A stretch of DNA of 58,057 nucleotides from an uncultured Planctomycetales bacterium (GCA_964483785.1 CAZACW010000009.1:1-58057), one strand, 5' to 3'; numbered from the stretch's first letter, positions 3,001-36,121 are shown. Numbers and translations: made by a program. The notes: generated by a model not told the origin, from the sequence alone.

Positions 3001-4082
3001 AAGCCATTGAAAGTAAGGCGATGGCAATGCGGGGGGCGCATGATTCTGCGAACGAGGAAGATCCTAAAGAGAGCGGGGCGGGGCACAGTGAAGACGCGGC
3101 GATGACGACACCGGCGCTGGGAGAAAATGAAGGAAGAATTCGGGAATGGCTTTTAAATACCGCCAGGGCTTTTACAAATGCTTTTGGAACTTTCGGCATC
3201 GGCGATGATAATGTCATTTTCCAGGATAGACCATTGCGTCATATTTCAGTTAGAGGCACGGCCGGGCCAGGAGAAATTGTAGGAACAACGGGGGCCCTGA
3301 GCTGTTCTCCAATGGTTATTTATGAGATGAAAGATGGACAATTAATGATTCATATAATCCATTACTTAAGCTACAGCGCCTTAGAGAATCCTGGGGAACA
3401 GGCGTTGTCTTTTGAACGCCAGAGATTTTTTGAGAAAGCCAATGGCATCGATTTAAAGCGCAGCATTGTCATTATCCCGTATGACAGTCGATATAAGCCC
3501 CAGTACCAGACTATAGCGATGGCCATCGGCTCCAGGTTCTCTAACAGTAAAGTTTTAATGGTGGAAGGCAATGTGGATTTTGTAAAGTCTTCCATGGCAG
3601 CTCCTGAGGGTGTGGCCGTTATTGAAAACACTGACAGGGGGACAAGGCAAGAGGATCAGTTCATGGTTATGAGCAGGAGAGAAATAGAAGGGTTTTTTAG
3701 GGCGTCTCATTCTAATGTTTTGAAAATAATTTTCACGCCCAATGGCACGGTTGATGTGAACCATGTTGAGCCTGTTCCTGGACATCTTGTGGAAGCTATT
3801 CATCAAACACCGGGGGTAAGCACTCCGCCGGCCGGAAGGCCTGGTCAAGGGTCTGATAATCAAGCCATGTTAATTGAAAATCCGCACACAAGAGGTGGTA
3901 TTGACATGAACTCCGCCAATTTGGCCATGACTATTAAGCGTGACGGTAATGGCGTGCCGTTGCCATTGGCCCAGCAAGATTTGGCCCAGTTAAGCAATAT
4001 TGACGGTCTTGAGCCGCTCATCATTTCCATCGAACCTGCCAACCAGACGGCTGTTTTTGCGCAGCTTGTGGGTCATCCTTAA
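3..4082 (+). CDS. Large modular protein (5'-partial): conserved N-domain, cargo modules (3x XRE HTH, putative deamidase), C-terminal GGID domain
   Basis: Frame is open from base 3 (PLRQVYSGMLLATWFK...) and aligns with LRQVYHSLILAAWYK...PRKYFSGG inside the 52551 paralogue, so the true start is upstream of the window. C-terminal GGIDMNSANL...GLEPLIISIEP matches GGIDFNSSKL...GLTPDIISIQP of the paralogue. Confidence 0.9.
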   Translation, partial: PLRQVYSGMLLATWFKRTLKQSLLGQIYANKAKVKGVDQDPKTNEEIYQRYLQAYKKGVFNFIKEDTDRLTNQTVPRKYFSGGLISAGMAFHDGVPVTHVLTVNQSKAMISGESRLEVADFAMVETNRAMTNGRSKAMKAIAVAAALLSAFPAVGKAQQLRSESSQNTISSPLSDSAMNVPDEQAITAMEELQNRIGGYVELIYLRTSLDEKLNLGYENVKPLFLEVEGLFNQLFAVYRRYMQDPDVQSYFMDLIRYFISVQNLKLWTVDELMVSDEHVFRRKIFATQIRVTERGDIESDDGRYDIPMEVLNPYWKDITDNLTEPKSVADTMFGQSLSKVYQKSNLRTAGINLLTFVARYYILLLAGDLAMTGQLTDAAMNPSPVGQRFFLQVRMKEIFHERVLDWMNENEEVKPNQRKMKETARALLNDEEFVAEAKANPEDILRIIVKYFVSHGQYPHSEIFPLLAYMQHFAPSIAHFRISGKVRFKHHFSDSFGRYIHLRTIVEHPRIQSWLAEEGPHTGMEFEAQLDEVLPSLRNEITKDDLTNFMQLMRTIFVPRPVSKKARPPKTTARRPEKKRAVERPKVERLIVEPLEDEFSQTVVHVIQRLVNEEGKTVGTIAEEAGLSQEELERIQRPGARVERETVAALAPALGLDADELWLQKVESRCQFKRTELDSFGRALTFYRYRINLTQKELSDAIQGLNYRTYIGHYENNRSLPATQQEFDEIIRILELNTQERQQLEALWHGGLKNNFGALVRYYHLSSTLTEPELIGALRLEGTLPQFARVETNIFILNETQAEALAGIFSLNEAQKKDFMESWQNQNRAMVSKVNTPDEAMTEKEQAALNRETLERTMKTLMTQDPFSQSAHLFYDPVLVMRNSIPAFFDESLERDKREAAYKILKDELNKLRLCVREFSVYGDRKKRIERAKAVLERDYEKEVQGKDPDEIHVILLARQMAQFELHGFSEDFANAVQQYGRLYGGLIDGLEEIIDLHYKAIESKAMAMRGAHDSANEEDPKESGAGHSEDAAMTTPALGENEGRIREWLLNTARAFTNAFGTFGIGDDNVIFQDRPLRHISVRGTAGPGEIVGTTGALSCSPMVIYEMKDGQLMIHIIHYLSYSALENPGEQALSFERQRFFEKANGIDLKRSIVIIPYDSRYKPQYQTIAMAIGSRFSNSKVLMVEGNVDFVKSSMAAPEGVAVIENTDRGTRQEDQFMVMSRREIEGFFRASHSNVLKIIFTPNGTVDVNHVEPVPGHLVEAIHQTPGVSTPPAGRPGQGSDNQAMLIENPHTRGGIDMNSANLAMTIKRDGNGVPLPLAQQDLAQLSNIDGLEPLIISIEPANQTAVFAQLVGHP

Positions 4083-33497: not shown

Positions 33498-36121
33498 AAG
33501 GTGTTCAGACCGGGATATTTTTGTCCGCGGCCTTTTTGGTCTGCGTTTTGGCCAACATGTTTTTCTTTCCGGATATCTTGTGGAGGCACGATGCCCGTTT
33601 TTCCTATATTCCGGACTCGGAAATGAACTATGAAACCGTCTTTGCCATGGCCAGCCAATTTTTCCAGGGAGGCATTCAGCTGTATGACCGCTTTGACGCG
33701 GTGAATGTCGCCTATACCCAGATGGCGGACGGGATTTTTACCGTCGTCAATTTTTTGTTATCAGGAATTTATTTTTTGTGCTCGCCTTTTTTACAGTATC
33801 CGGCCAAGGCCTTCCATCTTCTGTATTCCGACGGGTTTTATCTGCTCAACATGCTGATCAGGACCGTGGGCGGCTATTTGTTTTTAAGGAAATTTTCCTC
33901 CAACCCTCTCGTTTTGCTGGCCACCCTTGTTTATTTTAATACCATTTTCATGAGTCCCTGTTTCAACAATAGTTTATTGACCAACAGCCTGTATGCCTAT
34001 CTTCCGCTTTTGATGTATTTTCTCATCTGTTTTTTTGAGCGCTACAACATCGTTGATCTCTTGTGGTTTTTTATCTGCCTGGCCGTGGCTGTGGCCCATT
34101 CGCCGCTTTTGGCCCTGGGCTATTTTTACCAGTTTGTCCATGTGTTTATCCTGTCCCTGGCGCTTTTGAGTGTGTTGAGGCGCCACTGGCCCGTCTGGGA
34201 AAAGGGGAAGCTTTGGCAAAAGAACAGGCAGGCCGTGTTTTGGACGATCGGTGTTTGTGTCCTGATCCTTTTGCCTACGGTCCTGTTTTTGTCGTCGCTC
34301 AAGAATGATTTTTATATCCTTAATTCCGGGTTCGGGGACACCCAGGGCCGCATCAAGAATTTATTCAATGTCCAGGGGTACATGCATCTGCCCAACCGCT
34401 CCTACGCGTCTCCGGCGGATTTTGTGACCCTGCTCTTTGACTACACGCAGAATTTATGGGGCCAAAGCTGGTATTTCTTAGGGGCAGGTGCGGTCTTGAC
34501 AGGCCTGGTCGGTGCCATCGTATCGAAGAACCCGCTTAAACAGGTGCTGGTCATGGCCACGGTATTTTTGCTGTTTTTAAACATCCCGCCTGATCCCGGC
34601 TCCTGGACCTGCTGGGCCCATTGGATCAATGTCCTGACCAATCCGTTCAGTTTTTTGGTCCGCAGTTTTCACATGTCGGATTTGTTGTGGCCGACGGCCA
34701 TGACCGGGCTCTTGGCCCTTGGCCTGCAGGCCTGTGTCGATTTGGGCCAGGGGCATGGGGAGCGCATCCACGCCAAACGACTGGCGCTGACCATCGGCCT
34801 TTTGCTGGGCATAGGGCTCTTTTTTATTTTGGCCCATCTGGCCTACAGCGCCTATGTGGTGGTCTCATCCGGGATGATCTGCTTGTATTTGGCCTTGACC
34901 AGGACCAAATTGTATAAAAATTTTGCCGCGGCGAGATCAACCAGCCTCAGCGTTTGGGCGGTGATCGGCCTTTTTATTTTCAGCCTCATGGCATGGGATT
35001 TTAAGGTCTTTGTTCCCTTTATCCATGCCTATCCCTTGGGAGAAATCAAGATCAAACCCAGGCATTTTGATACGGTCTCGCCCGTTCCCTTGGTTTTGGA
35101 TTATCAGAACCCGAAATTTTTTCCGTTCCGCTATTATTTCCGTCAAGACCCGCGCACCATCAATCCCGAAATCCAGACCAATGGATTTGAATTCGGCCGG
35201 TTTTATCAGTATTACAGTCTGGTCCCCCGCTTTATCCTTCCGCCGGATTTGTATCAGCCCAGGCCTAAAATTTTCAAGGAGATTTCAGACGACCGTCCCA
35301 TCTGGCAATATTTATTCAAAGACAGCAGGATCATGTATTGGGCTGATGCCGCGGTCCTGGCAGACCAGGTCAATTTTCAGGATATTCTGGATTTGGGCTT
35401 GGACCGCCGGGTGCTGATGGTAGAAGGGGACCATGTGCCCAATTTAAGCGATGCAAGGCAATTGAAACTGGGGCCGCCAATTGAAATCCAGGACAATATC
35501 TATGAGCACCGTTTTGATTTTAATCAGGCCAGGCCCAAGGCCCGCGGTCCCCACGTCGAATACCGTTTTGATCTTCCGGATACCTTCCCCCAGTTTATTT
35601 CCACCACTGTTTTTTCACAGGACGCGGATCTATGGTCGGTCAAGGCCGGCTCTGTGCGCCTGTTTCCTGTCCAGGGGGAGCTTAGCGATGCCTTTACCTT
35701 TGATGTCAATAATGTGAAAGACCATGAGCTTCGCCTGCTTTTGCCGCGGGAAGTACCGATCCAGGGCCTGGGGCTTGATCTTCGCCTCAAGACCCCGGGC
35801 GATATCAAGCGGATCTGGCAAAACACCAATGATGCCTTGGGCCTGGATTATGCGGCGCCCAAGGACGGCTGGGTGATCGTCCATTTTCCTTTTGATCCCA
35901 AATGGAGCCTGACCGTCGACGGTCAGCCTGCGCCGTATTTCAAGGCCAACCGCTATTTCATGGCCTTTCCCATCACGCAGGGGGAGCATAAAATTCTCTG
36001 GCGCTACTGGCCGGGGACACCGCTTAGAATACTCATCGTTATATCGGTACTTTGCGCCGCCGCCGCTTTGGCCGCGGCCTTCAGGGAAGGACTGCGGCGG
36101 CTTCAAGTGCCGTCGACTTAA
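33494..36121 (+). CDS. YfhO-family GT-C membrane protein
   Basis: FQGGIQLYDRFD; C-terminal PFDPKWSLTVDG...GEHKILWRYWP; ATGA-coupled to the upstream gene. Confidence 0.8.
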   Translation: MKGVQTGIFLSAAFLVCVLANMFFFPDILWRHDARFSYIPDSEMNYETVFAMASQFFQGGIQLYDRFDAVNVAYTQMADGIFTVVNFLLSGIYFLCSPFLQYPAKAFHLLYSDGFYLLNMLIRTVGGYLFLRKFSSNPLVLLATLVYFNTIFMSPCFNNSLLTNSLYAYLPLLMYFLICFFERYNIVDLLWFFICLAVAVAHSPLLALGYFYQFVHVFILSLALLSVLRRHWPVWEKGKLWQKNRQAVFWTIGVCVLILLPTVLFLSSLKNDFYILNSGFGDTQGRIKNLFNVQGYMHLPNRSYASPADFVTLLFDYTQNLWGQSWYFLGAGAVLTGLVGAIVSKNPLKQVLVMATVFLLFLNIPPDPGSWTCWAHWINVLTNPFSFLVRSFHMSDLLWPTAMTGLLALGLQACVDLGQGHGERIHAKRLALTIGLLLGIGLFFILAHLAYSAYVVVSSGMICLYLALTRTKLYKNFAAARSTSLSVWAVIGLFIFSLMAWDFKVFVPFIHAYPLGEIKIKPRHFDTVSPVPLVLDYQNPKFFPFRYYFRQDPRTINPEIQTNGFEFGRFYQYYSLVPRFILPPDLYQPRPKIFKEISDDRPIWQYLFKDSRIMYWADAAVLADQVNFQDILDLGLDRRVLMVEGDHVPNLSDARQLKLGPPIEIQDNIYEHRFDFNQARPKARGPHVEYRFDLPDTFPQFISTTVFSQDADLWSVKAGSVRLFPVQGELSDAFTFDVNNVKDHELRLLLPREVPIQGLGLDLRLKTPGDIKRIWQNTNDALGLDYAAPKDGWVIVHFPFDPKWSLTVDGQPAPYFKANRYFMAFPITQGEHKILWRYWPGTPLRILIVISVLCAAAALAAAFREGLRRLQVPST

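Follow-up and report, generated by a model that had tools for sequence, protein, structure and literature searches.

The stretch of DNA analysed here (the window, 58,057 nucleotides (nt); GCA_964483785.1 CAZACW010000009.1:1-58057) is contig C9 of genome G000, an assembly of 2.4 Mb in 107 contigs that is 94% complete. Between positions 4079 and 36121 it codes for 13 polytopic membrane proteins resembling GT-C glycosyltransferases, each with 7-12 transmembrane (TM) segments by a hydropathy script, and for one GT2 glycosyltransferase that has no TM segment. All 13 open reading frames (ORFs) are intact. In all-against-all BLASTP the polytopic proteins form three mutually unrelated paralog families: family I (two members), family II (four) and family III (seven). 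A preliminary description had counted thirteen GT-C-like proteins in 4079..36121, divided 2/4/7, and both the ORF coordinates and the families were reproduced. Eleven of the 13 are accessory cargo at a fixed chromosomal site, and the locus of which they are part extends beyond 36121, to about 42715, through a second insert.

The source organism is an uncultured Omnitrophota bacterium. Of the contigs that encode family III proteins, the closest named ones belong to Candidatus Omnitrophota metagenome-assembled genomes (MAGs), and three carry the label 'uncultured Planctomycetales'. Because LpxC was found in the genome, the cell is probably diderm with lipopolysaccharide (LPS). The genes of the locus and its flanks are listed here in chromosomal order, with lengths in amino acids (aa) and with sm1 and sm2 denoting two small membrane proteins; the GT-C assignments are predictions.

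4079..5680 (-), I_a, 533 aa, PMT_2/ArnT-like GT-C, Pfam PMT_2 29.4 bits, 8 TM segments; backbone
5680..7293 (-), I_b, 537 aa, paralog of I_a (45% identical, E 1e-152); backbone
7311..9446 (+), II_a, 711 aa, YfhO-like polytopic protein, YfhO 31.2 bits, 12 TM segments; first gene of the island, kept in relatives that carry one
9922..10770 (+), FkbM-family methyltransferase (Methyltransf_21 1.8e-15, TIGR01444); G022 and G023 have orthologs at this position
10774..11283 (+), sm1, 169 aa, 3 TM segments, winged-helix-like tail on the cytoplasmic side; candidate subunit of a flippase or GT2 anchor
11287..11817 (+), sm2, 176 aa, 3 TM segments; distant paralog and predicted partner of sm1
11802..14378 (+), II_b, 858 aa, YfhO-like GT-C; variable cassette, best identity in relatives 26-35%
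14371..16449 (+), III_a, 692 aa, family III GT-C
16446..18692 (+), III_b, 748 aa, family III GT-C; modelled with AlphaFold2 (AF2)
18696..20969 (+), III_c, 757 aa, family III GT-C
20966..23569 (+), II_c, 867 aa, YfhO-like GT-C; modelled with AF2
23529..25790 (+), III_d, 753 aa, family III GT-C; 59% ortholog in G014
25795..27603 (+), III_e, 602 aa, family III, shortened and very divergent
27686..29920 (+), III_f, 744 aa, family III GT-C
29991..32228 (+), III_g, 745 aa, family III GT-C; 67% orthologs in G011 and G014
32225..32962 (+), TM-less GT2, 245 aa, Pfam Glycos_transf_2 2.4e-24; polyprenyl-phosphate sugar synthase type
33177..33497 (+), tRNA-binding-domain protein (tRNAbd), Pfam tRNA_bind; flank gene marking the boundary between the two inserts
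33494..36121 (+), II_d, 875 aa, YfhO-like GT-C; first gene of the second insert
36052..37260 (+), FAD-dependent oxidoreductase (NAD_binding_8 and Amino_oxidase); second insert, 73% ortholog within the G023 array
37518..39032 (+), B12-binding radical SAM enzyme (Pfam B12-binding and Radical_SAM); second insert
39048..40952 (+), asparagine-synthase-type amidotransferase (AsnB; Asn_synthase and GATase_7); second insert, 55% ortholog within the G023 array
41288..42715 (+), GMC oxidoreductase (GMC_oxred_N/C); last gene of the second insert, 51% ortholog within the G023 array
42720..44122 (+), CxxCxxCC protein (CxxC) and LPG_synthase_C-like protein, both by Pfam; conserved flank

From sm1 through the GT2 the genes are co-directional and largely overlapping. 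Their spacing ranges from -41 to +4 nt, barring two gaps of 70 and 82 nt, which bears out the earlier statement that they are mostly translationally coupled. The GT2 (32225-32962) is the only Glycos_transf_2 gene of the locus, as had been described, and the Pfam and NCBIfam scans of 4079-36121 likewise agreed with the preliminary description in finding no GT-B, Wzx, Wzy, Wzz or nucleotide-sugar families. The 475-nt gap between II_a and the FkbM gene holds a 73-codon ORF (9450-9671, +) with a hydrophobic N-terminal segment. Promoter-like sites in 4000-23900 occur at the level of shuffled sequence (20 versus 17.7). Terminator-like sites are enriched there, but they are located within T-rich membrane-protein genes, and for this reason no operon map was drawn from the scan.

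Are these proteins GT-Cs? The seven genes of family III lie between 14371 and 32228, are 24-36% identical to each other, and have no match to any Pfam or NCBIfam model. The AF2 model of III_b, built from the seven paralogs, has a mean predicted local distance difference test score (pLDDT) of 71.4 and a predicted template modelling score (pTM) of 0.77. A Foldseek search with this model gives nothing but GT-C enzymes as far as rank 34, with E<=0.001 for 11 of them; the matches include STT3, DPY19, AftA, ArnT, AglB, ALG12, PglB, Emb, Pmt4 and ALG3. VIA-align, which searched 48,161 chains, placed Pmt1-Pmt2 first (Z 22.2; root-mean-square deviation (rmsd) 4.0 over 364 aligned residues), followed by ArnT (Z 18.4; 6.2 over 420), Pmt4 (17.7) and ALG3 (17.1). 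The first 20 rows are GT-C-fold chains throughout, and the structural matches include a subunit of the glycosylphosphatidylinositol (GPI) transamidase, which has the GT-C fold and is not an enzyme. As modelled, III_b has about four extra helices (residues 1-160), a GT-C core at about 164-570, and a C-terminal domain of periplasmic type.

Conservation within family III was counted over 115 sequences, comprising the seven window copies and 108 proteins of 640-800 aa from the best 150 representatives. D204, located in the loop that follows the first core helix, occurs in 104 of these and is invariant in the seven window copies; R311 is kept in 111, D315 in 112, D624 in 112 and R654 in 113. By their conservation D204, R311 and D315 appear to be catalytic-type residues. 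A profile search of 1.84 billion representatives returned 952 family III proteins at E<=1e-3 and 392 at E<=1e-30. The family was found in nine of 301 sampled Omnitrophota genomes, all of them within the window's own order.

For family I the GT-C assignment comes from Pfam, where only I_a passes the PMT_2 cut-off (PF13231; 29.4 bits against 26.1) and I_b has no match, though it is 45% identical to I_a; the assignment looks right for the family. A profile search of PDB gave no sequence match for I_a. Both family I copies have the motif GDHGRD in the first loop. All four proteins of family II exceed the Pfam YfhO cut-off (PF09586, 28.5 bits) with 31.2, 31.7, 44.3 and 34.0 bits. The match is confined to the last 55-75 or so of 835 model positions (about 762-835), and the membrane domain of the model is unmatched, so we call these proteins 'YfhO-like', with a common C-terminal beta-sandwich and last TM helix, and not demonstrated YfhO orthologs. 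In family II, D61 in the first loop is nearly invariant. II_b, II_c and II_d are 23-35% identical; II_a is joined to them by BLASTP through its C-terminal 70 or so residues only. No sequence relation was found between families II and III (hhalign probability 2%), and sequence-profile searches of PDB with both gave nothing meaningful. Orthologs of II_c of 58-66% identity occur in other metagenomes.

The AF2 model of II_c (pLDDT 68.7) ends in a beta-sandwich and then the last TM helix. Its top 20 VIA-align rows are all of GT-C fold, led by STT3B (Z 14.9), AglB (14.2), ALG12 (14.2), AftA (13.6) and ArnT (13.2), scores to be read with the caution that helical proteins can reach Z of about 13 through arrangement alone. 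The GT-C fold given in the preliminary description is right for at least 10 of the 13 proteins, by model or by close paralogy.

The nearest solved relatives of the GT2, as the top three distinct proteins in PDB, are the dolichyl-phosphate mannose synthase (DPMS) of Pyrococcus furiosus (9e-18), GtrB of Synechocystis (7e-14) and ArnC (1e-12). The DMD of the GT2 aligns with the DAD of DPMS. Unlike all three it has no TM segment, and in this it resembles the anchor-less DPM1/PpgS type. These relationships support its assignment as a polyprenyl-phosphate sugar synthase type, and they are in keeping with the DPM/Alg5-like identity first proposed for it.

How would a lipid-linked sugar cross the membrane? 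Locus Pfam scans for the known flippase families (GtrA, SMR ArnE/F and MATE) were negative, and GtrA had no match in the whole genome (94% complete). The earlier statement that the locus has no flippase thus stands for known families, but the conserved sm1/sm2 pair is a candidate. The two proteins are distant paralogs (hhalign probability 95%, E 2.3e-8). In Pfam at E up to 10 they give only a sub-threshold HTH_45 row, and in the Atlas they match unnamed clusters. Modelled together, sm1 and sm2 scored 0.67 and the best control 0.00; a score of 0.67 is reached by 116 of 157 solved complexes and by 2 of 215 mismatched pairs, a calibration that is rough here since custom alignments were used. Contacts agreed between runs to at least 97%, and partner pLDDT was at least 78. 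The two proteins are thus predicted to heterodimerise.

The sm1 family is found in 34 of 301 genomes of the phylum, and 20 loci from other genera were sampled for their neighbourhoods. Two sm-type ORFs occur together in 18 of the 20, in one case with only a GT2 between them. In 13 loci the pair has a TM-less GT2 (243-271 aa) no more than three genes away, and in two more a GT2 with TM segments (317-328 aa) is equally near; these GT2s were recognised by their BLASTP similarity to the GT2 of the window, with Pfam confirmation for two. Of 19 large polytopic neighbours scanned with Pfam, nine belong to no family. The others are one each of PMT_2, YfhO, DUF2079, GT-C_AftD (below cut-off), Wzy_C, ArsP and LPG_synthase_TM, and three that are TPR-tailed. 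DPM1 is itself a TM-less GT2 that is held at the membrane by small partners. The sm1/sm2 pair may be a flippase for the lipid-linked sugar, or it may hold the anchor-less GT2 at the membrane.

Radical SAM genes adjoin the sm pair across the phylum, and often they stand between it and the GT2. They are of the rSAM-SPASM type at L072, L073, L074, L076 and L080, and B12 rSAM-like at L078, L083, L085, L087 and L088. The lipid-linked sugar may be modified by radical chemistry.

To follow the locus through related genomes, ORFs were called in the regions fetched from them and matched to the window proteins. Arrays are present at the same site in three genomes of the same genus (G006, G011 and G014) and in two of the same family (G022 and G023). 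On one side each array is bordered by I_a/I_b, provided that the fetched stretch extends so far, and on the other by the genes for tRNAbd, CxxC, LPG_synthase_C and RNase T, beyond which the flank gene order continues with PabB, PabC, MetC, SPOR, MiaA and HflX. In G007, family III genes are at most 3.4 kb from the RNase T ortholog. At the corresponding position in G010, of the same genus, I_b is followed after 85 nt by tRNAbd, CxxC, LPG_synthase_C and RNase T with nothing between. Likewise, family I adjoins the flank genes and there is no array in G015 and G009 (same genus) and in G018 (another genus). Beyond family I, the same-genus genomes with empty sites carry ClC channels, a permease and other unrelated genes. 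Orthologs of I_a are 65-70% identical in the island-less G009, G010 and G015, and those of I_b are also found in island-less genomes. Since family I persists at empty sites, I_a and I_b are backbone and the cargo of the first insert is 7311-32962.

A second insert (33494-42715) contains II_d, the FAD oxidoreductase, the B12 radical SAM enzyme, AsnB and the GMC oxidoreductase, and it separates tRNAbd from CxxC. These two genes are adjacent in G006, G011, G014, G022, G010, G015 and G018. The tRNAbd orthologs are 75-88% identical and adjoin CxxC in all relatives checked, with or without the island; tRNAbd belongs to the flank, has been trapped within the locus and is no part of the cargo. The G023 array itself contains orthologs of three of the second-insert enzymes. 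This, together with the adjacency of tRNAbd and CxxC elsewhere, indicates that the functional locus runs to about 42715.

In every relative checked the island is flanked by the tRNA-binding/CxxCxxCC/LPG_synthase_C trio (33177-33497, 42720-44122). In G030 a family III gene comes directly after an LPG_synthase_C gene, and a FemAB/GNAT-like gene is found inside a multi-GT-C locus (L036:6909-9921; L035:6016-7050). Genes of the type of aminoacyl-tRNA-dependent transferases thus accompany these GT-C genes.

The cargo is far from uniform. Flank genes are 59-89% identical to those of genus-mates, I_a, I_b and II_a 43-71%, and sm1 and sm2 56-61%. The best matches of the family III proteins among relatives are 25-40% each, except for III_g (67%) and III_d (59%), and those of II_b, II_c and II_d are 26-35%. 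A quick maximum-likelihood tree of 41 family III proteins consists of old paralog lineages with no genome-specific expansions. One closely related set is common to G006, G011 and G014; III_a, III_b and III_f of the window fall among the copies from G022 and G023, which are of other genera. Approximately unbiased (AU) tests reject the placement of III_f and III_a with genus-mates (p 6e-8 and 8e-4), for groups that were chosen after the first tree had been seen. Cassette exchange and differential loss of old paralogs both fit these data, and the enzyme set differs between sister species either way.

Donor supply varies as well. The orthologous island of G011 has no detected GT2, in G014 the ortholog is retained (65%), and three different GT2s are present in the G006 region. 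In the window's genome there are 31 GT2 matches and about 32 GT-C candidates, of which 13 are in the window and 19 elsewhere; eight of the 19 are over curated cut-offs or match the family III profile. Several of the GT2s adjoin other GT-C genes. In view of these numbers, the proposal in the preliminary description that one or a few lipid-linked donors serve the whole array is weak, and the idea of a single donor does not hold across relatives.

An eighth copy of family III, 50% identical to III_d, is on contig C15 of the same genome (G000:C15, about 26500-32900; L038:6554-12912). There the family III GT-C comes after genes for a sugar C-methyltransferase (Methyltransf_14), a second methyltransferase, an aminotransferase of DegT type and, last, a GT2 of 231 aa. 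The gene content points to a C-methylated amino sugar delivered on a lipid carrier. The gene order matches ArnB-ArnC-ArnT, and it is the best indirect evidence that family III uses a polyprenyl-phosphate sugar.

The extracytoplasmic multi-transferase pathway suggested at the outset is the most economical reading. From the genes we infer a donor, a side of action, an order of steps, an acceptor and a role for sm1/sm2 as follows. On the cytoplasmic face, the TM-less GT2 would load sugar on polyprenyl phosphate, and other TM-less GT2s encoded elsewhere in the genome would probably contribute donors too. The lipid-linked sugar would then cross to the periplasmic side, and may do so by way of, or together with, the sm1/sm2 heterodimer. 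On that side as many as thirteen GT-Cs, each making its own linkage, would add sugars to a growing or pre-existing envelope glycan. The FkbM methyltransferase, the FAD and GMC oxidoreductases, the B12 radical SAM enzyme and the AsnB-type amidotransferase would modify the sugars. As the eleven GT-Cs other than I_a and I_b differ between species or are missing, the product would be a species-specific coat. We put at about 0.6 the probability that the locus is an accessory surface-glycan island which gives such a coat and is exchanged as O-antigen loci are.

Several observations weigh against this. The only repeats flanking the second insert are short, low-identity matches at chance level, there is no tRNA gene in the window, and no integrase that would explain exchange was found. 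The G+C content of the island (0.50-0.54, versus 0.53-0.57 in its surroundings) shows no compositional difference. No acceptor, priming enzyme, export step or ligation step is encoded in the island, and because the G011 island has no detected GT2, the island's own donor synthase would appear to be dispensable. The part given to sm1/sm2 is suggested by gene neighbourhood and one in-silico complex. Among the GT-Cs, the status of II_a is the least secure of the thirteen, as it is linked to family II via the C-terminal module only (residues 606-683, hhalign probability 80%); its orthologs are 68-71% identical in G006 and G014, and the Atlas clusters nearest to it are Omnitrophota proteins, 21-28% of them with YfhO. 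The II_c model found no match in Foldseek at E<=0.001 (best EmbB, E 9.6e-3), to which the caution on VIA-align scores must be added. III_e is about 140 residues shorter than its paralogs, has internal deletions in the family III alignment and the longest branch of the tree (2.32), and may be inactive or specialised. Finally, the AU groups were not chosen in advance, and hidden paralogy with differential loss would yield the same trees.

Do the transferases build one glycan, or do they act separately? They could be parallel protein glycosyltransferases, each for a different surface protein (pilins, giant envelope proteins, adhesins), with no stepwise polymer. The protein O-mannosyltransferase Pmt1-Pmt2 is the best structural match of family III (Z 22.2), and the best NCBIfam rows of II_b and the GT2 are PgfM1 and PgfS, the streptococcal protein-glycosylation pair, both far under their cut-offs. 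Against this, neither the island nor its immediate surroundings have a conserved protein that would be a candidate acceptor, Pfam finds no acceptor-binding MIR or TPR domain in the 13 proteins, and eleven co-directional, largely overlapping genes gained and lost as a block fit one pathway better. We regard protein glycosylation as unlikely, though it is the strongest of the alternatives.

A lower probability attaches to the addition of single sugars to the lipid A, core or O-chain of LPS, as ArnT or Gtr would do it, in which the genes would be independent seroconversion modules with donors from GT2s elsewhere. O-chain LPS is likely, given LpxC and four Wzy_C-family genes over cut-off on other contigs. 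GT2/GT-C pairs are scattered over other contigs and the Arn-like family III module is on C15, and an excerpt of PMC11127046 mentions three-component seroconversion systems with several GT-Cs. Yet known Gtr and Arn modules consist of one GT-C with its own synthase and flippase, and here there are 11-13 tightly coupled GT-Cs per one GT2 and one small pair.

It is very improbable that there are few real enzymatic steps because many of the paralogs lack catalysis or are decaying (scaffolds in the way of PIG-U). In favour are the missing internal segments and longest branch of III_e, the GPI transamidase subunit among the structural matches, and the frames of families III and I that are split or truncated in relatives. 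Against it, all 13 window frames are intact, D204 is kept in the window copies and most of the family, and the paralogs are old, each with orthologs elsewhere.

The surface-glycan island that we favour can be compared with several known systems. The three-component systems (GtrB/GtrA/Gtr*, CsbB/GtcA/YfhO and ArnC/ArnE-F/ArnT) share with it a GT2 synthase, an extracytoplasmic GT-C, and small membrane proteins at the usual position of the flippase gene. It differs from them in having 11-13 GT-Cs rather than one, an anchor-less GT2, seven GT-Cs for which there is no Pfam or NCBIfam model, and, instead of GtrA, SMR or MATE, a 3-TM pair with winged-helix-like tails that belongs to no curated family. 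A pentofuranose system of Citrobacter is described as three-component extracytoplasmic glycosylation in the excerpt of PMC11127046.

Mycobacterial arabinogalactan, lipomannan and lipoarabinomannan (LM/LAM) are likewise made by many GT-Cs with their own linkages (EmbA/B/C, AftA-D, PimE, MptA-C), which elongate a polymer on the outer face with one or two donors, decaprenylphosphoryl arabinose (DPA) and polyprenyl phosphomannose (PPM). AftA, AftB, AftD, EmbA/B and PimE are among the structural matches of the family III and II models. Bacterial GT-Cs usually occur singly or a few at a time, mycobacteria being the known exception, and the mycobacterial arabinan and mannan GT-C genes are core, essential and scattered. 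In contrast, the island is one co-directional block that is present, absent or recomposed among congeners, and there is no relation at the level of sequence. Serial GT-C steps are also found in the lumen of the endoplasmic reticulum (ER), with ALG3/9/12/6/8/10 and PIG-M/V/B/Z using Dol-P-Man and Dol-P-Glc; ALG3, ALG9, ALG12 and ALG6 are among the III_b structural matches. The DPM1-DPM2-DPM3 synthase offers a possible analogy for the GT2 with sm1/sm2, and no relation of sm1 or sm2 to DPM2/3 was detected. The ER system is eukaryotic in setting, whereas here we have a bacterium.

With O-antigen and capsule loci the island has in common a fixed site, conserved flanks, replaceable cargo, non-orthologous transferase sets and empty sites. 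The cargo is GT-C, not cytoplasmic GT-A/GT-B with Wzx/Wzy or ABC export, none of which is in the locus. The scale and logic of the island are closer to mycobacterial arabinan and mannan assembly or to the ALG steps of the ER lumen, and its population genetics are like those of an O-antigen locus.

A full-text literature search found no paper on GT-C arrays in Omnitrophota or the candidate phyla radiation (CPR), and the term 'glycosyl' is absent from Seymour et al. 2023 (PMC10066038). The excerpt of preprint 10.64898/2026.06.07.730766 places LPS/capsule glycosyltransferases among the cargo of hypervariable regions and makes no mention of GT-C arrays. What is new here is that the array, at one fixed site, may be present, missing or mosaic, that the locus is longer than first described, and that the genome has an Arn-like module with a lone family III copy. 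The sm1/sm2 pair is new as well. A wider proposal, which we offer tentatively and consider doubtful as a whole, is that the Omnitrophota of this order make a surface glycan wholly periplasmically with GT-C cassettes swapped between species like serotype genes, which would be a GT-C-only counterpart of O-antigen loci, and that sm1/sm2 represent a new kind of partner for anchor-less synthases (a flippase or DPM2/DPM3 analogue), phylum-wide and, by Atlas look-alikes, beyond.

Of the GT-C candidates of this 2.4-Mb genome, then, eleven are on an exchangeable island and seven of these belong to a family found only in one Omnitrophota order. If our reading is true, variable surface glycans would have a third genetic logic in addition to the Wzx/Wzy and ABC-transporter pathways. 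It would also add a new GT-C family to a classification of the CAZy type and provide a testable candidate for the poorly understood step in which polyprenyl-phosphate sugars arrive at the outer face. In nanobacteria that are thought to be attached to other cells, a coat peculiar to the species would matter to the recognition of hosts or prey and to defence against phages.

Two large proteins flank the locus, and both have signal-peptide-like segments and lower G+C (0.44-0.47). The first (27-4082, +) is a 5'-open frame from base 3 of 1351 aa with a G+C of 0.44 and a marginal HTH_31 match (28.4 bits). Its signal-peptide-like segment at residues 121-150 or so suggests a later start, and it has no homolog in the fetched regions of relatives. 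The second (52515-57518, +; 1667 aa, G+C 0.46-0.47) starts with a signal-like stretch, and residues 530-650 form a NUDIX domain; export would be unusual for a NUDIX protein. Homologs of this giant, up to 2705 aa long, are near the same chromosomal region in G014 and G018. The preliminary description had taken the flanking proteins to be exported, which may be right given these segments, and had offered them as possible acceptors, a role for which the case is weak: they are outside the island and unlinked to it, and G018 has a homolog of the NUDIX giant though it lacks the island. A lone PIN-domain gene (51708-52163, -) is located between this giant and hflX.

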